From NCBI GenBank assembly GCA_963835535.1, contig CAWIFL010000002.1, forward strand, positions 649,011 to 713,010: DNA of 64,000 bases, given 5' to 3'. Below the pieces are notes generated by a model. That model searched no databases, was not told where the DNA came from, and saw nothing but the letters and a program-made list of their open reading frames with translations. Numbering within the stretch: position 1 is the first letter of the stretch; each line of letters opens with the position of its first letter. Below are positions 2,430 through 23,832 of this stretch, one piece after another. The position numbers and the translations under genes were made by a program. The DNA comes from an uncultured Gemmatimonadales bacterium. GTDB lineage: Bacteria; Gemmatimonadota; Gemmatimonadetes; Gemmatimonadales; JACORV01.

Positions 2430-3512
2430 TCAGTACTCCAGCGGCAATCCCACCTGCCGGCCGTCGCGGGCCGACTGGTAGATCGCGATCAGCAGCTCCA
2501 GCGAGCGCAGCCCTTCCCGCCCGTCCGTCTCCGCCGGCGCCTCGCCGCGCAGGGCCTTGATCACGTTGTCGTAGTAGAGCGCGTGGCCATGGCCGTAGAT
2601 CGAGCTGGGCTGGTAGCTCGCCTCCTGCCACTTCGCGTCGTCCTCGGCGTCGGGCTCCTTGAACTCCCAGTGCTCGATCTTGTTCACCGCGACGCCGCCC
2701 AGCCGCACCGTGCCCTTCTCCCCGAGGATCGTGACCGAGCCCTCGAGGTTCTTGGGGTAGGTGCACATCGTGACGTTGATCGAGCCCAGGGCGCCGTTGC
2801 GCCAGCGGATGGCGGCGACGCCCGTGTCCTCCACCTCGATGCGGCGCGCGAGGGTGGCGGTGTAGGCGTACACCGACTCGACCGGGCCGATGAGCCACTC
2901 CAGGAGGTCCACGTAGTGGCTGGCCTGGTTCATGAAGGCGCCGCCGTCGAACTCCCAGGTGCCGCGCCACTTTGCCGAGTCGTAGTACTCCTGCGGCCGG
3001 GTCCAGAAGACGTTGCAGGTGACCGTGTAGATGCGCCCGAACCGGTTCTTCGCGATGGCGCGCTTGACGAGCCGCACGGTGGGGTTGAGCCGGTTCTGCT
3101 TGACGACGAAGAGCTGGACCCCCGCCTTGTCGCACACCTCGACCATCCGCTTTCCGTCGTCCCAGCGGGTGGCCATCGGCTTCTCGGTCATCACGTGCCG
3201 GCCTGCCTGGGCCGCCTGGATCGCCTGTGCGGGGTGGAGGCCTGAGGGCGTCGCGAGCACGACCAGCTCTGCGTCCGACTTGGCGAGGAGGGCGTCGAGG
3301 GATGCGAAGCCGGGCGCGCCTGTCTTTTCCTGCGCCGCGGCGAGCGCCTTGGGCTCAATGTCGCAGACCGCCACCAACTCCGCGTCAGCCTTGTGGGCCT
3401 CGAGCGCGTCGAAGTGGCTCTTGGAGATCCGGCCGCAACCCACGAGCGCGACGCGGATCCGGCGGCCCCCGGGGACCGGCTTACGGACAAGCGAAGCCGA
3501 AGTTGTAGTCAT
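2430..3512 (-). CDS. Gfo/Idh/MocA-family NAD-dependent sugar oxidoreductase (WbpB/WlbA-like)
   Basis: Rossmann start RIRVALVGCGRISKSH, the MTEKPMA motif and the characteristic C-terminal alpha/beta domain. ATG at 3512 is preferred over the TTG at 3521 used by the ORF track. Confidence 0.8.
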   Translation of the reverse strand: MTTTSASLVRKPVPGGRRIRVALVGCGRISKSHFDALEAHKADAELVAVCDIEPKALAAAQEKTGAPGFASLDALLAKSDAELVVLATPSGLHPAQAIQAAQAGRHVMTEKPMATRWDDGKRMVEVCDKAGVQLFVVKQNRLNPTVRLVKRAIAKNRFGRIYTVTCNVFWTRPQEYYDSAKWRGTWEFDGGAFMNQASHYVDLLEWLIGPVESVYAYTATLARRIEVEDTGVAAIRWRNGALGSINVTMCTYPKNLEGSVTILGEKGTVRLGGVAVNKIEHWEFKEPDAEDDAKWQEASYQPSSIYGHGHALYYDNVIKALRGEAPAETDGREGLRSLELLIAIYQSARDGRQVGLPLEY

Positions 3513-4201: not shown

Positions 4202-4256
4202 CTCTTGACGGGGCCGGTGCCGCGCCCCAAGTTTGCTTTACCTTGCAGAGTACTTT
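4202..4256 (+). promoter_or_regulatory. Candidate promoter/5' element of exporter gene 1 (block shared with 21116-21170)
   Basis: CTCTTGACGG (4202-4211) contains a -35-like TTGACG that ends exactly 32 nt before TTG 4243. It is followed by TGCAGAGTACTTT (4244-4256). The same two boxes, with the same 32-nt spacing, precede the paralogue at 21157. Confidence 0.4.
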
Positions 4257-4278
4257 GTACAACACGGCAAGCCACCCC

Positions 4279-6926
4279 ATGCGGGTGCTCCAGAGCGCCT
4301 GGCGCTTCACCCGGCGCCCGATGATCACTCTGGCCGCGATGGAGCTTGCCTCGACGCTCCTGGGCGCTGCGGCTGGGCCCCTGACCCCTAACCCCTATCC
4401 CCTAACCCCTGTCTTTCTCGCCGCCCAGCAGCCCGCCGGAGTGTCGGACCAACAGCTCCAGCAATACCTCCAGCAGCCGGGCATCGCCGACCAGCTGCGC
4501 CAGCGCATCCAGCAGAGCGGCCTCTCGGCCGACGAGATCCGCTCACGCCTCCGGGCCGCGGGTTACCCCGACAGCGCCATGAACGCCTACCTCGCCCCCG
4601 GTGCGGCGGGGGTGCAGGCGCCCGCGCCGACGCTCGAGACGCTCCGCGCCGCCACGGCGCTGGGGCTGGGGACGTTCGGGCCCTCGCCCGACACGCTGAA
4701 CGCGCTCCGCCGGGTCGTGGCGCTCTCGCAGGGGGACTCGATCCTCCTCGACTCCCTGGGCTTCGAGATCGGCCGCGACTCGATCCCCGGCCGGATGGGG
4801 AGCGACGGCGTGATGCGCCTCGACACGGCCGCGGCGCTCCGGATCTCGGCGTGGCTCAAGCGGCCCAAGGTCTTCGGCCTCGACGTCTTCAGGCGCACGA
4901 CGACGCAGTTCAGTCCGGTCGCCTCCGGGCCGGTGGACGCCGGCTACCGCCTCGGGCCGGGGGACGACCTGATCCTGATCCTCACCGGAGACGCGGACGT
5001 CGTCGAGGAGCTGCCCGTCACGCGCGAGGGGTTCGTGGTGATCCCGCAGGTAGGGCGCGTGCCGGTCGCGAACCTCACCCTGGGCGAGCTGCGGACGCTG
5101 CTCGCGACGCGGCTGGCGCGCGTGTACTCCGGCGTGAGGACGGGGACGATCCGCTACGACGTGACCGTCTCGCGGGTGCGGATGAACCAGGTGTTCGTGG
5201 ACGGCGAGGTGGTGCGGCCCGGCTCCTACCCGGTGAGCGCGCTCGGCACCGTGATGAACGCGCTCTACCTGGCGGGGGGCCCGACCGAGGCGGCCGACTT
5301 CCGCGACGTGCGCGTCATGAGGGGCGGCGCCGTGATCCAGCAGCTCGACCTCTACGACTACCTGGTCCGCGGGAACACGCGCGGCGACATCCGGCTCGAG
5401 CAGGGCGACGTGGTCTTCGTGCCGCCGGTCCAGCGGCGCGTGCAGGTCACGGGCGCCGTGCTGCGGCCGGGCTTCTACGACCTGGCCGACACGGAGGACC
5501 TGGGCGCCCTGATCCACTACGCCGGCGGGCTGCTGCCCAATGCGGATCAGGGACGGGCGCACATCGAGCGCATCCTCCCGGAGGCCCAGCGGCAGGCGGG
5601 CGGGCGCGATCGCGTGGCGATGGACGTGAACGATCTCGCCGGGGTGCTCCGGAGGGGGGGGCGGGGGGCGGCACGACGCCTCACTTCCGGCTGGAGCCCG
5701 GCGACCGCGTCACGATCTTCCCCGTCACCGAGGCCGTCCGGGGCGAGGTCACGCTGCGGGGGAGCGTCTGGAAGCCCGGCCCCTACGCCGTGGAGCCGGG
5801 GATGACGCTCTCGCGCCTCCTCGCCGAGGCGGGCGGCCTCAAGCCCGACGCGTATCTCGATCGAGCGCACGTCGTGCGCCTGATGCCGGATTCGACGCGG
5901 CGGCTGATCACCGCGGATCTGCGCTCGCTCCTCGGGCCCGGAGGGGCGATCCTGCCGAATCCGCCGGCGGCCGACGACCCGCAGCTCGCGGAGAACGACG
6001 AGGTGACGGTCTTCGCCACGCCGGAGTTCCGGCCGCCGCGCGAGATCCGGGTCTTCGGCGCCGTGCAGCACCCCGGCACCTATTCCTTCCGGGACTCGAT
6101 GACGGTGCGGGACGCCGTCATTCTCGCGGGCGGGCTCGGCGACGACGCGTATCTGCTCGAGGCGGAGATCTCGCGCCTGCCGCAAAGCCCGACGGACACC
6201 TCCGCGCTCGCCCAGATCATCCACGTCCCGCTCGACTCGAGCTACGTGATCGATCCGACGTCATACGTGCGGCGCGTCACCGCGCCGCAGGGGTCGAATC
6301 CGGTCCTGCAGCCGTCCGACTACGTCTTCGTCCGGCGGGTGCCGGGGCTGGAGCCGCAGCGGACGGTGGTCGTCACGGGCCAGGTGCGATTCCCCGGCCA
6401 CTACGCGCTGACGAGCCGGGACGATCGGCTGGCGGACGTCCTGCGCCGCGCGGGGGGCGTGACGACGAACGCGTACGTGCACGGCGCGCAGTTCTTCCGC
6501 TCGTTGGGCCATGCCGGCCGGATCGGCATCGACTTCGAGGGGGTGCTGAAGGACCAGCGCAACCGGGACAACCTGCCGCTCTTCGGCGGCGACTCGATCT
6601 ACGTGCCGGAGTACCAGCCGATCGTGAGCGTCGAAGGGGCGGTGAACAGCCCGGTCGCGGTGGCGTACGAGCAGGGGCGCGGGACGGGCTTCTACATCGA
6701 GCGGGCGGGCGGGTTCACGCGCCACGCGGACAAGGGGCGGACGTACGTGATCCAGCCCAACGGCTCGGTGTTCACGCGGAGCGCCACGCCCGAGCCGGGG
6801 GCCAGGGTCGTGGTGCCGGAGACGCCGCCGGGCGAGCGCACCAACTGGATACAGATCCTGTCCAGCGTAGGCCAGCTCCTGGTGAGCACGGTGACGCTGG
6901 CGATCCTGGCCAAGCAGGTGCTGTAG
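4279..6926 (+). CDS. Outer-membrane polysaccharide export protein (OPX/Wza-family, Poly_export + multiple SLBB repeats), paralogue 1; interrupted by one frameshift as assembled
   Basis: Two overlapping ORFs (4165-5805 and 4851-6926) together align end to end with the 21157-23832 paralogue. The frame switches inside the G8/G6 tract at 5654-5668. Repeated SLBB-like motifs are present (GAVxxPGxY, D...LxxAGG). C-terminal hydrophobic helix NWIQILSSVGQLLVSTVTLAILA. Alternative start at TTG 4243. Confidence 0.8.
4385..4410 (+). repeat. 7-bp tandem repeat (CCCCTAA/CCCCTAT) x3.7 inside the exporter-1 coding region
   Basis: Direct reading gives cccctaa cccctat cccctaa cccct, which encodes PLTPNPYPLTP just after the predicted signal/anchor segment. 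Confidence 0.85.
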
Positions 6927-12716: not shown

Positions 12717-13914
12717 GCGCGCCGGACGGGTGCCGAACCGGGGACAACTCCTCCGAGGCGCCGCCCGCTGGATCGCGCCCGGGCACGAGTGCCACCGGGT
12801 CGCGCGTCGCATTCGACGATTCCTACGGCCGGCTCGTGGCGATCGGCACGGGCGTCTACATCCGGAGCCTGTCCGCGGCGCTCGAGTCCCTCGTGGGCCA
12901 GCGGTTCGTGCGTGTGACGGAGCCGGTTCGCGCGGCGGCCCAAGAGCGCACGGCGCACGCCCCGCGAGCAATTCGACACGCTGATGAGGGACCTCTGGTG
13001 GCACCAGGCGGGCGCCGAGGTCGCCGCGCGGCGGCGAGGCGCCGCGCTGCTGCACATGCCCGTCGGGTTGGGGCCCCTCGCGGGCAGTCTGCCGATCGTC
13101 ACCACCGTCCACGACGTGATGCCGATCCGCTTCGCGAAGCTGTTCCGTCCGTGGTACCGGTGGTATGCGGGCGTGGTGATGCCACGACTTGGCGCGCCGG
13201 GCGCGTGCCGTCATCACCGTCTCCGAGGCCGCGAAGCAGGAGATCGTCGAGTGGTTCCGCGTCGCGCCCGAGCGGATCACCGTGATCCCCCACGGCATAG
13301 ACCCGGCGTTCGTGCCGCTCGCGGCCGGCGATCCGCAGGCCGCCGAGGTGAGGCAGCGGCATGACCTCCCGGCGGATTTCATCCTCGCGGTAGGGTCGGT
13401 GGAGCCCCGGAAGAACCTCCAGCGCCTGCTGGAGGCGGTGCACCTCCTCCGAGACCGCCCCGGGACTCGCGATGTCCGGCTCGTGCACGCGGGTCCCGAG
13501 GGGTGGCGGACGGAGGAGATCGCGGCGGCGGTGCGAAGGCTGTCGCTGGACGGCGCCGTGCGCTTCCTGGGCCACGTCCCGGCCGCGGACCTGCGCGTGC
13601 TGTTCGGCGCCGCACGCGCCTTCGTGTACCCGTCGCTCTGGGAGGGGTTCGGGATCCCCGTGCTCGAAGCGATGGCCTGCGGGTGCCCGGTCGTGGCCTC
13701 GGGCGTGGGGTCCATCCCCGAGGTGGCCGGCGGAGCAGCGCTCCTCGTGGACCCGGAATCGGTGGAGGACATCGCGGCGAGCATTGCGTCCGTGTGGAAC
13801 GGCGACCCGGTGCGCGCGGACTTGGTCCGCCGCGGCCTCGAGCGGGCCCGGAGCTTCACCTGGGATCGCGCCGCGCGCGCGACCGTCGCGGTCTATGATG
13901 CGGCCCTGGCCTGA
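12713..13914 (+). CDS. GT4 glycosyltransferase; two frameshifts as assembled
   Basis: The C-terminal ORF 13189-13914 carries the GT4 signature (PSLWEGFGIPVLEAMACGCPVV). The N-terminal parts lie in two other frames (RVAFDDSYGRL..GTGVYIRSL; LHMPVG...IVTTVHDVMPI). Shifts lie near 12940 and 13188. GTG 12713 overlaps the upstream stop (GTGTGA). Confidence 0.7.
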
Positions 13915-15386: not shown

Positions 15387-15968
15387 CCCGCTGAAGCTGT
15401 AAGTCGCACCCCCCGCCGTAAGCGTCAGCGCCACCGTCGTGTCCGATCGCGTGCCGGTGACCGAGGCGGGACTGGCGGGTGGAGCGATGCTGCCGGTTCC
15501 GGCCACGGAGCCGTTGCTGTCGGTGAGATCCAGGATGATCCGCGCGGAATCCTGAGATGCCGCCCACCTCCCCGTCAGCGAGGCGGCGGAATCGAGCTGG
15601 AGCGTCACCGGAATGCGCAGGCTGTCGGTCGGAACGACGATCGAGATGCTCGCGCTGTAGCTCCCCGGCGCGAGGCCGGCAGGCCGCCCGCCCACGTGCA
15701 GGAAGAAGGGCACGGTATCGCCGGTCGCGGCGAGCAGGAACCAGTTTGCGCTGACGTACGCGTGCCATCGGGCCGAAACGACCGTGTCGAGGCCGATGCT
15801 GATGTACTGGTCCGGAAGCAGCGTCGCACCGAGGCGGCCATGGAACGCCAGGCTCTCGGGCGTGACGATCAGTCGCGGCGCCCGCGTGTCCGGGACGCGC
15901 GCCTCCGTGCCGAGGCGGCAGCCGGACGTGACCGCCGCGAGCAGGAGCAGCCGAGCGAGTCGCCTCAC
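15306..15968 (-). CDS. Putative lipoprotein, unknown function
   Basis: MRRLARLLLLAAVTSGC lipobox-like signal. Thr/Ser/Gly-rich, beta-rich sequence. No family recognised. Confidence 0.5.
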   Translation of the reverse strand: MRRLARLLLLAAVTSGCRLGTEARVPDTRAPRLIVTPESLAFHGRLGATLLPDQYISIGLDTVVSARWHAYVSANWFLLAATGDTVPFFLHVGGRPAGLAPGSYSASISIVVPTDSLRIPVTLQLDSAASLTGRWAASQDSARIILDLTDSNGSVAGTGSIAPPASPASVTGTRSDTTVALTLTAGGATYSFSGLLVGDTTLVGTLTGGTAGLALTFYRQ

Positions 15969-17297
15969 GCGATCGCCCTCTCACGCACCGGGTGCCCCAC
16001 CCACCACATCGCCGCGCCGAGGAGGACCGCGTCAAGCGTGACCCTGAGCGTCCAGGCCAGGGCGGCCCCCGCGACGCCGTACGCTTCGATCAGCACCCAC
16101 GCCGCCGCCGCGTACAGCGGCAGCTCGATGAGGTGGAACATGGCCGGGATGTCGGGGCGGCCCCTGGCGAGGAGATACGCCGAGGGGAGGTACGCGAGCC
16201 CGTTGACGAGCACGCCGCCGGCCAGGATCGCGAGCGCCGTCGCCCCATTCGCGGCGTAGGCGTCGCCCAGCCACACGCTGAGCAGCGGATGCGCGAAGAG
16301 CGCGGCGAGGCCGGTGGGGAGCGCCAGGGCGGGAAGCAGGTACCAGAGCGCCCGTCCGACCAGCCGCTCGCTCTCGCGGCCCCCCCCTGCTCCGCTCTGC
16401 GCGGCACTCGCGCTCACGAGCGGGAAGAGCGCGCCCGCCAGGCTGGCCGGGACGATCGAGATCCGGATGATGGCCTCGAACGGCGCGGTGTAGTAGGCCA
16501 CGGCCGCCACGCCCGCGAGCGACGCGAGCAGGAACCGCTCGAGGTAGCCCAGGACTGGCGCGATGGCGTTCGAGACGCTCACCCAGCCGCCGTAGGCCAG
16601 CAAGCGGCCGAAGCACCGCCCAGCTCGGCCGCAGCTCCCAGCGGAACTCCGGCAGCGAGCGCCGGATCGCCACGGCCAGCGCCCAGCACGCCGCGATGCG
16701 GGTGGCCAGCAGCAGGAGCACGATCGTGGCGAGGCTGGCGCCGAGCGGCGCGGCGATGGCGGGTATGGCGAACCCCGCCACGGCCAGCGGGCCCCGCACC
16801 AGGTTGCCGAGATCGAACCGCTGCGCCCCCTCGAGGATCCCCCTGAGGCTCGCGGAGAGCACCACGAACGGGACCGAGGCGGCGAGCGCGATCAGCGCGA
16901 GGTGCGCCTCGCGATGCAGCGCGGCCGGGATGCCGAGGGCGCTCGTGAGCCATCCGCTCGCCAGCGCGAGAGCGACCCCGCCGATCACCCCGAGCCCGGT
17001 CTGGCTCGCGACCGTGAGGCCGGCCACGCGCCGCAGCTCGGCGTGCTTCCCCAGAGACAGATACTCGGCCACGTACTTGGTGGTCGCACGGCCCAGGCCG
17101 AGGTCGAGCGCCACGGCGGAACCCAGGATCGCCCAGATCAGGCCGAGCAGTCCGAACCGGGGTGCGCCGAGGTAGCGCGTGGCGATGGGGATCGCCGCGA
17201 CACCTACCAGGAGGGGGACGGCCTGGCCCAGCAGGTTGTAGAGGGTGTTCCGCGCGAGGGCGCGGCCGTGCTCAGCAGTGCTGCTCGACGTAGTCAT
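15965..17297 (-). CDS. Wzx-type polysaccharide flippase (MOP superfamily) 1; one frameshift as assembled
   Basis: The N-terminal ORF (from 17297) reads ARNTLYNLLGQAVPLLVGVAAIPIATRYLG..FGLLGLIW. The C-terminal ORF 15965-16603 continues the TM pattern. The frames join near 16600-16612. Confidence 0.7.
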
Positions 17298-21115: not shown

Positions 21116-21170
21116 CTCTTGACGGATGGGGTGACGTGAAGCACATTCACTTTGCCATGCAAAGTACTTT
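21116..21170 (+). promoter_or_regulatory. Candidate promoter/5' element of exporter gene 2 (block shared with 4202-4256)
   Basis: CTCTTGACGG (21116-21125). Its TTGACG ends 32 nt before ATG 21157. TGCAAAGTACTTT follows at 21158-21170. It lies in a 66-bp divergent intergenic region. Confidence 0.4.
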
Positions 21171-23832
21171 TTCGCGCCCGATCGTGTTCCTGGTGGCCCT
21201 GGAGCTGGGGTTGACAGCTTCTCGGGGGCGGCTGGGTGGTCGCTACACCCTACACCCTACACCCTATCACCCTCGCCTTTGGCCGCCCAGCAGATCCCTA
21301 CTAGGCCCGCCAACGTCTCCGACCAGCAGCTGCAGCAGTACACCCAGCAGCCGGGGATGGGGGCCCAGATCCAGCAGGCGATCCAGCAGAGCGGCCTGAC
21401 GCCGGACCAGATCAGGGCGCGCCTGCGCGCGGCGGGATACCCCGAGAACCTGATTGACCAGTACATGCAGGCCCCGGCGGCCGGGCAGGCGGTGCCGAAC
21501 CCCACAGCGCAAATGCTGAGAGCGGTGTCGGCTTTGGGCATCGGCACCTTTGGAGCGCTTCCCGATACGCTTGCCGCCCGCCGCGACTCGATCTTCCTGA
21601 CGCGCGACGATTCCCTGCTCCTCGACTCCCTCGGCTTCACGATCGGCGTGGACTCGATCCCGACCAGGCGGGATACGCTCGGCTTCCTGCGCATAGACTC
21701 GCTGGCCACGTTCCGGTTGGCGGAGCGGGTGCACCGCCTGCGAGTCTTCGGCCTCGACGTCTTCCGGCGCACGACGACGCAGTTCAATCCCGCGGCCACC
21801 GGGCCTGTGGACCCCGACTACCGGCTCGGGCCGGGTGACCAGCTCGTGCTGATCCTCACCGGGGATGTGGAGACGGGTGTCGAGCTACCCGTCACACGGG
21901 AGGGCTTCATCGTCATCCCGCAGGTGGGGCAGCTCTACGTGGCCAACCTCACGATGGACCAGCTCCGGGACCTGCTCTACTCGCGGCTGGGACGGGTGTA
22001 CTCGGGGGTCAAGCGCGGGGCAGGCGCGACCACGCACTTCCAGGTCGCCGTGTCGCAGGTCAGGGTGAATCAGATCTTCGTGACCGGCGAGGTGGCGCGG
22101 CCCGGCGCATTCTCGGTGAGCGCTCTGGGCACGGTGATGAACGCGCTTTACGCCGCGGGCGGGCCGACCGAGCACGCCGACTTCCGTGGGGTGAAGGTGA
22201 TGCGGGCCGGGAAGGCGGTCGCGACGCTCGACCTTTACGACTATCTGCTGTCGGGGAACACTCGCAACGACGTCCGGCTCGAGCAGGGCGACGTGGTCTT
22301 CGTGCCACCCGTGAGCCGTCGCGTGGAGATCCGGGGCCAGGTGATGCGGCCGGCGCTGTACGATCTGGCCCAGGGGCAAGACCTCCGCGAATTGATCCAG
22401 ATGGCCGGCGGACTTCTGCCGCAGGCGTACACGGGGCGTGCGCAGATCGAGCGAATTCTCCCGCCCGACCAGCGGCCGCCGGGGGGCCGGGACCGCACCG
22501 TGGTGGACGTGGATCTCGCGGCTGCGCTGGGTCCCGGTGCCCCGTCCGTCCAGCTGGAGCCGGACGACCGGATCACGATCTTCGGCGTGAGCGTTCCGGT
22601 CAGGAACCGCGTCGTCGTCAAGGGCGACGTGTGGCGGCCGGGGGCGTACCAGGTCGATTCGGGGATGAAGCTGACCCAGCTCATCGCGGAGGCCGGAGGG
22701 CTGAAGCCCGACGCGTATCTGGACCGCGCGCACATCGTGCGATTGAACCCGGATTCGACTCGGGTCCTGATCCCGGTCAGCCTCGTGGGCATCCCGCCCC
22801 AAGGCGCGCCGGACTCCGGGCCCGCCGACACCCTACACCCTACACCCTACACCCATCTTGCCCCTACTGGGCATATCGCGTTCGATCCAGATCTCCAAGA
22901 GTTCGACGAAGTTACAGTCTATTCACGCACGGCCTTCCGCCCGACGCGGCAGATCGTGGTGTACGGCAACGTCCAGCATCCCGGCTTGTTCGCGTTCACC
23001 GACTCCCTGACCTTGCGGGACGCGGTGATGATGGCCGGGGGCTTGAGGGACGACGCGTACCTGTTGGAGGCGGAGATCTCGCGGATCCCCGAGCATCGGA
23101 CGGAGGGGGAGCTGGCCCGCGTGATCCAGGTCCCGCTCGATTCCAGCTACGTGTTCGACCCGACCGGCTACCTCAGCCGGCCGGCCGGGTCGGCCGCTCG
23201 GTCGCCCCGGCTCGAGCCGTACGACAACATCTTCATCAGGCGGGTCCCGGGCTGGGACCTCCAGCGGAACGTCTACATCACGGGCGAAGTGAAGTTCCCC
23301 GGCCGGTACACGCTCACGCGTCGCGACGAGAAGTTGCTGGATGTCCTCGACAGGGCCGGCGGGCTCACGCCGGACGCGTACATCGGCGGGGCGCAGTTCT
23401 ATCGAGCGCAGGGGAATGCGGGCCGCGTCGGCATTGACCTGAACAGGATCCTGAAGGACTCGACGTACAGGGACAACATGATCCTGTTCGCCGGCGACTC
23501 GCTGTACGTGCCGCAGTACCAGCCGGTGGTCTCGGTGGAAGGCGGCGTCAACAGCCCGGTGACGGTCGCCTATGTGCCCGGGCAGGGTACGTCGTACTAC
23601 ATTGACCGGGCGGGCGGGTTCTCGCGGCGCGCGGACAAAGGGCGGACCTACGTGGTGCAGCCCAACGGCTCGGTCGAGCGCGCGCAGCGCCACGCCGCAG
23701 CCGGGGGCGCGCGTCGTGGTGCCCGAGGTGCCGCCGGGTGAGGAGAGGACCAACTGGGCCGGGATTCTGAGCGCCGTCGCGACCATCCTCACCAGCGCGC
23801 TGACGATCGTGCTGGTGGTCCAGCGCCTGTGA
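21157..23832 (+). CDS. Outer-membrane polysaccharide export protein (OPX/Wza-family, multi-SLBB), paralogue 2; two frameshifts as assembled
   Basis: The main ORF 21279-23741 is collinear with paralogue 1. The N-terminus (MQSTFSRPIVFLVALELGLTAS) lies in another frame, with the switch at the G5 run 21224-21228. The C-terminal helix (NWAGILSAVATILTSALTIVLVV) lies in ORF 23572-23832, with the switch in the GC-dinucleotide run 23678-23685. Confidence 0.8.
21243..21270 (+). repeat. 7-bp tandem repeat (CTACACC) x3 perfect plus 1 imperfect unit in the 5' coding region of exporter 2
   Basis: Direct reading gives ctacacc ctacacc ctacacc ctatcac. It shares an identical 22-nt stretch (acaccctacaccctacacccta) with 22828-22849. 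Confidence 0.85.
22828..22855 (+). repeat. 7-bp tandem repeat (ACACCCT) x3 perfect plus 1 imperfect unit in the interior of exporter 2
   Basis: Direct reading gives acaccct acaccct acaccct acaccca, which encodes DTLHPTPYTH. The aligned position in paralogue 1 has no equivalent insert. Confidence 0.85.

Follow-up and report, generated by a model that had tools for sequence, protein, structure and literature searches.

Among the phase-variable simple sequence repeat (SSR) loci of bacteria are the poly-C tract in the siaD gene of Neisseria meningitidis and the tetranucleotide tracts in the lipopolysaccharide genes of Haemophilus influenzae. To our knowledge, repeat-driven frameshift switching of surface structures has been documented almost entirely in host-adapted pathogens and at long, perfect tracts. 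Tracts of heptanucleotides have been described in hmw1A and hmw2A of H. influenzae, including the intragenic (AATTTTG)14, and the threshold for heptamers in this bacterium lies at more than 2 units (PMC2651432). For Gemmatimonadetes, we found no report of SSR phase variation in the literature searched. Here we analyze a stretch of 64,000 nucleotides (hereinafter, the window) from an uncultured Gemmatimonadales bacterium (contig CAWIFL010000002.1, positions 649,011 to 713,010 of the forward strand), which encodes two paralogous Wza-like polysaccharide exporters that carry tandem heptanucleotide arrays at equivalent sites near their 5' ends. We interpret the array as an in-frame, low-copy heptanucleotide microsatellite that would act as a frameshift (ON-to-OFF) hotspot under reading-frame constraint, and estimate the probability of this interpretation at roughly 0.6; the array is best described as a slippage-prone, low-copy frameshift hotspot, with its interpretation as a contingency locus being partly supported and a fast on/off switch being the less likely reading. 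The genes and arrays in question are the following.

4279..6926, plus strand: exporter gene 1, coding for a Wza-like OPX protein with Poly_export and several SLBB domains; the frame is broken near 5652-5672 in the assembly.

4378..4412, plus strand: heptanucleotide array of gene 1, five units (CCCCTGA CCCCTAA CCCCTAT CCCCTAA CCCCTGT), in frame, encoding PLTPNPYPLTPV.

21157..23832, plus strand: exporter gene 2, which shares about 60% identity with its paralogue, gene 1; the frame is broken relative to the intact orthologues.

21241..21277, plus strand: array of gene 2 at the site equivalent to that of gene 1 (CGCTACA CCCTACA CCCTACA CCCTATCA CCCTCGC), encoding SLHPTPYTLSPSP.

22828..22854, plus strand: second array of gene 2, (ACACCCT)x3.9, in a hypervariable loop, encoding TLHPTPYT.

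As in the SSR contingency loci, a gene for a surface structure carries a non-triplet tandem unit close to its 5' end, where gain or loss of a unit shifts the frame, and there is an inactivating natural unit-number variant, in this case in an orthologue of gene 2. More specifically, the 7-base unit lies within the open reading frame (ORF), at the junction of signal peptide and mature protein, such that unit gain or loss would alter expression. In contrast to those loci, which typically consist of 6-40 perfect units, the arrays in the window comprise only 4-5 units with interruptions, the ON length is kept from one species to the next, and the host belongs to a free-living uncultured Gemmatimonadales lineage as opposed to the host-adapted pathogens.

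Tandem Repeats Finder (TRF) delineates the gene 1 array at 4378-4410 (period 7, 4.7 copies, 88% matches, score 52), and the degenerate three-unit pattern CCCCTNNCCCCTNNCCCCT yields 3 overlapping matches compared to 0.00 expected from 100 dinucleotide-preserving shuffles. The initial annotation of this DNA, made from the sequence alone, had reported about 3.7 units at 4385-4410; the repeat is indeed present and is slightly larger, with five units at 4378-4412. That annotation was also correct in placing the repeat in the coding sequence just past the signal segment: the frame that starts from ATG 4279 (the other candidate starts being TTG 4243 and ATG 4321) reads the array as P-L-T-P-N-P-Y-P-L-T-P-V, after the hydrophobic signal-peptide core MITLAAMELASTLLGAAAG and before FLAAQQPAGVSDQQ, which contains the LAAQQ motif. 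The third unit contains TAT in the position where a perfect unit would introduce an in-frame TAA. An origin of the arrays by chance or as an artefact is ruled out by the shuffles together with the presence of the arrays in independent short-read assemblies.

A heptamer array, always of 4-5 units, is present at the same site in the related loci L121, L122, L123, L125, L126, L127, L130, L131 and L144, and the segment of constant length extends through the gene 2 clade (71-97% identity) and the gene 1 cluster (98%); the array spans 12 codons in about 20 orthologous alleles and 13 in the gene 2 of the window. The units themselves differ: they are CCCTAAC, with one CCCTACA, in L121 and L122, CCCTAC(A/C) in L123, L125 and L126, CACCTGA in L127 and L131, CACCTRC in L130, and CCCCTAA, as in gene 1, in L144. 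The replacement is concerted. L121 and L131 are 93% identical overall, yet 14 of the 35 array bases differ between them, with the same two substitutions repeated in every unit, and unit identity is 0.74-0.90 within arrays versus 0.64 for units in the same position of these two loci. The peptides encoded at this site in the relatives include SLTPNPYTLTPA, SLTPATWHLTPI, S-TPDTWHLTPV, SLTPDTWPLTPS and PLTPTPYTLTPV, as well as PLPPTPYTLPPV, PLRPTPYTLTPV, RLPPATYHLLPD, PLTP(N/D)PYPLTPV and PLHPTPYTLTPA. Among orthologues that are 93-96% identical, the amino acid changes are non-synonymous (NPYT / ATWH / DTWH / TPYT), and both the 7-base period and the homogeneity of the units are retained. In all strong heptamer arrays that we detected in the window and in about 60 kb of related loci, the repeat lies inside an exporter gene.

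The distribution of stop codons points in the same direction. A perfect (CCCCTAA)3, (CCCTAAC)3 or (CACCTGA)3 contains a stop in every frame, and the unit that would place TAA or TGA in frame is always altered, to TAT in gene 1, to TAC in L121 and L122, and to TGG in L127 and L131. The unit CCCTACA is stop-free in all frames and is found at three sites: at the N-terminus of gene 2 in the window, within the loop of gene 2, and at the N-termini of three orthologues of gene 1. Concerted change, stop avoidance and non-synonymous turnover, taken together, imply that the DNA repeat, not the peptide, is the evolving entity, and the repeat appears to be maintained at the DNA level and not as a protein motif. 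The initial annotation had proposed to compare orthologues from related strains; this comparison reveals arrays at the same site and turnover of the units, with the length nearly invariant. Distant homologues outside the clade possess a plain signal peptide that ends in ...ALAAQQ, so that the array-coded peptide is an insertion, and we know of no description of an N-terminal repeat-coded insertion as a feature of the Wza/OPX family. A recent, lineage-specific insertion, which was at first suggested by 120 listed homologues without the peptide, was overturned by the close orthologues that carry the segment.

The best evidence in favor of the idea put forward in the initial annotation, that changes in the unit number shift the frame of the exporter, is a deletion in a metagenomic contig (L132; ENA ERZ27249770, contig k141_438662). 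Compared with L127/L128, from two JGI metagenomes, this contig shows 0 mismatches over 5,466 bases and a single 14-base gap that corresponds to exactly two units (ACACCTG ACACCTG GCACCTG ACACCCG -> ACACCTG ACACCCG). With these 14 bases missing, the signal peptide and the mature exporter are no longer in the same frame, and the gene call accordingly starts at an internal Met (P0254, 821 aa). The affected gene is an 87%-identical orthologue of the paralogue, gene 2, and not of gene 1. Judging by the predicted reading frames, L132 represents a natural knock-out mediated by the repeat, against a background that is identical in all other respects. The gene 1 array contains 12-base direct repeats (CCCCTAACCCCT) at 4385 and 4399, that is, with a spacing of 14 bases, which makes a two-unit deletion mechanistically available there as well; among the alleles compared, none with a deletion of the L132 kind in the gene 1 array was observed. 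Three relevant metagenome loci that were found via the conserved 5' motif described below (L133, L138 and L139) are all in frame. N-terminally truncated gene calls turned out to be unsuitable as a proxy for OFF alleles: P0125 is in frame, P0254 is the true array deletion, and P0269 reflects a deletion beside the array.

Based on these observations, we propose a tentative scheme for the evolution of the array. The module consists of a C-tract followed by T and 2-3 variable bases, repeated five times and translated as a Pro-rich stretch that connects the core of the signal peptide to the AQQ processing region; it is one copy of a repeat type that occupies the same site in both exporter paralogues and in their orthologues from other Gemmatimonadales. 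By replication slippage and/or conversion between misaligned units, variants would spread along the array (concerted evolution). Selection for the open reading frame would hold the array at about 5 units (12 codons) and would also force a point change in the unit that otherwise introduces an in-frame TAA or TGA. If one or two units were gained or lost, the signal peptide would be uncoupled from the mature protein and export abolished, which would make the array a mutational ON-to-OFF hotspot. We infer slippage as the probable mechanism from these patterns; the OFF state might be reversible, and the switching might carry ecological weight, for example through capsule loss under phage pressure.

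Several observations weigh against a hotspot of this kind. The longest perfect run in the gene 1 array, at 4378-4412, is CCCCTAACCCCTA, or 1.9 units, which falls short of the more than 2 perfect heptamer units of a hypermutable tract (PMC2651432). The L132 deletion is known from a single assembled contig and is the one unit-number variant among about 20 alleles, none of which shows an in-frame length variant (gain or loss of 3 units; 2-, 8- or 11-unit arrays). All 12 N-termini in the 90% cluster that includes gene 1 (representative P0200, 98% identity) have the same length, and the DNA of L144, a short-read JGI contig from the same cluster, contains the same five units as the gene 1 array. The initial annotation would have abandoned its reading if the unit number were invariant; it is not strictly so, given L132, an orthologue of gene 2, but it is invariant for the gene 1 array in the cluster and in L144. 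In addition, L144 lacks a single base at a distance of three bases upstream of the array (GGCTGGG -> GGCGGG, at about 245-255, equivalent to window 4371-4377), which results in a TGA in the first unit, with the gene called from a GTG just after the array (P0269); L144 is, by its predicted translation, a natural OFF allele that was not caused by the repeat. The frameshifts of the window itself lie outside the arrays and hence are not array-caused OFF states either. The array has been lost or has decayed in P0124, P0126, P0127 and P0129-P0131, which indicates that it is dispensable. Finally, length-preserving conversion could account for the concerted evolution without any OFF intermediate.

A more far-reaching possibility is that the array is a true contingency locus, selected for its mutability and responsible for reversible, high-frequency ON/OFF switching of the exporter and hence of capsule or exopolysaccharide (EPS) production. 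Apart from the non-triplet unit at the 5' end of a surface-polysaccharide gene, this possibility draws on the persistence of the array at one site in both paralogues and in orthologues with 73-98% protein identity, where the periodicity outlives the full turnover of the units, on the two-unit deletion allele in an otherwise identical 5.5-kb background, on the fact that a gain of 7 bases would put ATG 21157 of gene 2 back in the mature frame, and on the presence of two exporter paralogues, a redundancy that would make OFF states tolerable. Nevertheless, the units are very few and interrupted, the ON length does not vary in about 20 alleles although a fast switch would be expected to generate the in-frame length variants mentioned above, just one OFF allele is caused by the array, and the break in gene 2 is located upstream of its array in an assembly in which other genes are frameshifted as well. 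We therefore regard a contingency locus in the strict sense as an unlikely, if still serious, candidate. The initial annotation had spoken of a classical contingency design for surface structures: the non-triplet unit and the 5' position in a surface-polysaccharide gene agree with such a design, whereas the term classical does not apply to an array with fewer than 2 uninterrupted units, an ON length that is kept in about 20 alleles and one unit-number variant. Persistence through full unit turnover, occurrence in both paralogues and position count for a selected, reversible switch, and the imperfect tract and the near absence of length polymorphism count against it.

The exchange of sequences between the paralogues brings in a broader version of the switch. 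The first approximately 60 residues of gene 1 (signal peptide, array and AQQ...VSDQQLQQY; window 4279-4460) resemble the gene 2 clade and have no counterpart in P0188, an orthologue with 78% identity to the rest of the protein. In a related metagenome-assembled genome (MAG), the one that contains MGD0993288 and MGD0993301, each of the two paralogues (compared through P0239 and P0262) carries the array type that the other one has in the window. Furthermore, P0245 and P0123 are identical over the C-terminal approximately 700 residues (compared by eye) and differ in their 5' modules and signal peptides. These findings suggest recombination or conversion at or near the array. One could then envisage the module both as a selected, evolvable switch, with slippage toggling capsule export ON and OFF, and as a junction common to the exporter paralogues, with the shared repeat providing the microhomology for the exchange of 5' modules (promoter and signal peptide) and array types. 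The swapped array types, the mosaic 5' end of gene 1 and the spread of CCCTACA to three sites are consistent with such a dual role, to which we give about the same low credence as to the contingency locus proper.

The arrays of gene 2 contain longer perfect runs than that of gene 1. The initial annotation had pointed out a different heptamer, encoding LHPTPYTL, at the equivalent place of the paralogue, and this array is found at 21243-21273 as (CTACACC)x3 followed by degenerate units; the third array of the window, at 22828-22854, had been missed. The mid-gene unit, ACACCCT, is the N-terminal unit of gene 2 in a rotated form, and the perfect runs in the two gene 2 arrays, 3.4 and 3.9 units, both exceed the 2-unit threshold. 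In the 64 kb of the window, these three are the only CCCT-type (C-tract) heptamer arrays of at least 3 units, each of them on the coding strand of one of the exporter genes. The mid-gene site contains (ACCCTAC)x3.9 in the window, L122, P0164 and P0239, (CCCCGGA)x3.9 at 2182-2227 of L121, where the gene is 94% identical and the C-tracts are in register with those of the window, and degenerate CCGGGCC-type heptamers at 4733-4766 of L127; this loop of gene 2 is hypervariable across the family.

The frame breaks of the window call for separate consideration. The one in gene 1 maps to the following feature.

5650..5672, plus strand: G8 and G6 runs GGAGGGGGGGGCGGGGGGCGG, at which the frame of gene 1 shifts; the orthologues read VLRGGGGGATPHF without a break.

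P0200, 98% identical to gene 1, is intact (880 aa). The break in gene 1 reflects either an error of the assembly at a homopolymer or another frameshift site, of the homopolymer type, in the same exporter. A comparison of the window with the 92%-identical syntenic contig L122 revealed three frame-breaking differences in 8.7 kb. One is an additional base at 16602 in the flippase gene, as a result of which the Pfam match is split over the ORFs 16032-17297 and 15965-16603 (the flippase of L122 is intact, at 441 aa). The other two are in gene 2, namely two additional bases near 21216, about 20 bases upstream of the array, which leave ATG 21157 out of frame with the mature part, and one additional base near 23680, at the 3' end. 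By frame arithmetic, one more heptamer unit (+7) would also return ATG 21157 to the mature frame. The gene for a GT4 glycosyltransferase near 13190 (approximately 13160-13200) is apparently split too. The breaks may be assembly errors or real mutations (pseudogenization). Given that the gene 2 break is upstream of the array, that frameshifts also affect the flippase, the G-tract of gene 1 and gene 2 at its 3' end, and that the source contig, of 714,473 bases, may come from a long-read assembly, the frame status of the window was rejected as evidence of an OFF state, and its ON/OFF status is not used in the argument.

Heptanucleotide tandem repeats of cyanobacteria go by the name STRR. A related class, the G-rich GGGNATC heptamers of Xanthomonas and Nostoc, is mainly intergenic and under-represented in coding sequences, shows a preference for four units and forms G-quadruplexes in vitro (Rehm et al. 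2015, PMC4692102). The arrays in the window resemble these repeats in combining a G/C tract of 3-4 bases with a short spacer, in having about four tracts and in having the C-rich strand as the transcript strand; they differ in being translated and in occupying a fixed site within a single gene family, and in that the G-tracts are not conserved in the orthologous exporter arrays. An exact scan of the species-representative genome collection for the 21-mer (CCCTACA)3 (loci L001-L120) detected at least 120 stretches. Among the matches listed, most are from cyanobacteria, and the other carriers are Phycisphaeraceae, Saprospiraceae, Nitrospirae and three other Gemmatimonadales MAGs. The strongest of the listed matches belong to filamentous cyanobacteria (Oscillatoria SIO1A7, Lyngbya CCY1209, Sphaerospermopsis, Limnospira, Microcystis), and the 8-kb loci around the listed matches contain 538 period-7 TRF rows, about 4.5 per locus. 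In the three other Gemmatimonadales MAGs, the heptamer arrays are intergenic: an inverted pair of G-rich and C-rich heptamers between genes, with a possible hairpin, at 395-462 of L019; two arrays at 3289-3320 and 3825-3892 of L071, one of about 10 units right after a stop codon and the other immediately upstream of a start codon; and an 8-unit array in a divergent intergenic region at 2765-2823 of L111.

Given these parallels, a G-quadruplex or i-motif role was considered, in which the G-rich template strand (GGGGTTA or GGGTGTA, at least 4 tracts) might modulate transcription or replication of the exporter genes in the manner of the Xanthomonas/Nostoc GGGNATC repeats. Both a regular-expression search and ViennaRNA assign to the antisense strand of the arrays G-tracts of 3-4 bases in at least 4 copies. 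The three arrays account for 3 of the 6 canonical quadruplex motifs in the 64 kb (regular expression), all on the template strand of the exporter genes; with quadruplex energies included, ViennaRNA predicts a 4-layer quadruplex for the gene 1 array (-38.6 kcal/mol) and 3-layer quadruplexes for both gene 2 arrays; and the 4-5 tracts fit the preference for four units (PMC4692102). The same-site arrays of L127, L131 and L130 (CACCTGA/CACCTRC), in contrast, lack C3/G3 tracts, and the predicted folds are a hairpin or a quadruplex of no more than 2 layers, so that the capacity to form quadruplexes is not the conserved property of the repeat, and the G-tracts are not its conserved element. A quadruplex-based function accordingly appears improbable, clearly more so than either form of the switch.

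Least plausible of all, and in our view very nearly dismissible, is a purely protein-level feature, a Pro-rich linker that joins the signal peptide to the mature domain and has a fixed length, the DNA period being a by-product: the length is constant (12 residues) and LTP...LTP is kept in many orthologues, but selection on a 12-residue peptide cannot produce a 7-base period, the variation is concerted and non-synonymous instead of being mainly synonymous and independent of the units, the peptide changes among 93-96% identical orthologues with the 7-base periodicity kept, and many functional orthologues have no such segment altogether. Purely protein-level conservation, which the initial annotation had named as one of the findings that would refute it, is not what is seen, given this concerted non-synonymous replacement and the stop-avoiding unit that is always present. 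Programmed ribosomal frameshifting in the array was rejected, the X XXY YYZ site being absent from the required frame, and the candidate role in mRNA structure found no counterpart in the minimum-free-energy fold of 4230-4460, which leaves the array as a mere unpaired loop.

The host genes of the arrays (P0242 and P0268 are the window's own products in the protein collection) are readily classified. Both encode Poly_export (PF02563) followed by multiple SLBB domains (PF10531, PF22461), the arrangement that defines the OPX/Wza class, with all matches above the curated Pfam cut-offs: PF02563 scores 49.8 bits in each of the two genes (cut-off 28), and PF10531 scores 74.9 and 109.3 bits in two fragments of gene 1 and 180.2 bits in gene 2 (cut-off 27). 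Both exporters resemble EpsE and the PEP-CTERM-type exporters, with all NCBIfam equivalog scores under the cut-offs, and their annotated homologues are from Gemmatimonadales. The domain set and the setting in EPS loci are those of the Wza/OPX export proteins; compared to this family, the exporters of the window are about 880 aa long and contain 4-5 SLBB domains. The two EPS loci in which the genes reside additionally encompass genes for UDP-GlcNAc 2-epimerase, a GFO/IDH/MocA oxidoreductase, dTDP-sugar epimerase, Wzz/GNVR, a Wzi-like protein, Wzy_C, GT2 and GT4 glycosyltransferases, a flippase and Bac_transf.

The 5' ends of the exporter genes share a palindromic DNA motif, CA(A/G)AGTACTTTG, at 4246-4257 and 21147-21171 of the window (CACTTTGCCATGCAAAGTACTTT in gene 2), which is also present in L121, L122, L131 and L132 and is located downstream of the conserved CTCTTGAC. 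The motif is read in different frames in different orthologues (MQST... versus ...LCATKY...), and its exact 20-mer occurs also in eight unrelated-looking metagenome contigs (L134-L137 and L140-L143); it resembles a promoter or operator element and not a coding sequence.

The kind of element described here is a known one, an SSR frameshift hotspot in a surface-polysaccharide gene; unusual in this case are the very low copy number, the constant length and the concerted replacement of the units. In an uncultured soil/peat lineage, a capsule/EPS exporter retains a short heptamer array at the same site from species to species, with at least one apparent natural repeat-mediated knock-out. For annotation, this is a site at which exporter genes will often be mis-called as N-terminally truncated. 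Even if not adaptive, the array is a clean natural example of a microsatellite under reading-frame constraint, with a fixed length, a stop-avoiding unit and a drift towards a stop-free unit. If switching does occur, contingency behavior would extend to environmental Gemmatimonadota, an uncultured non-pathogenic phylum, with only 4-5 units, and very short non-triplet repeats could act as switches, perhaps under phage pressure on the capsule.

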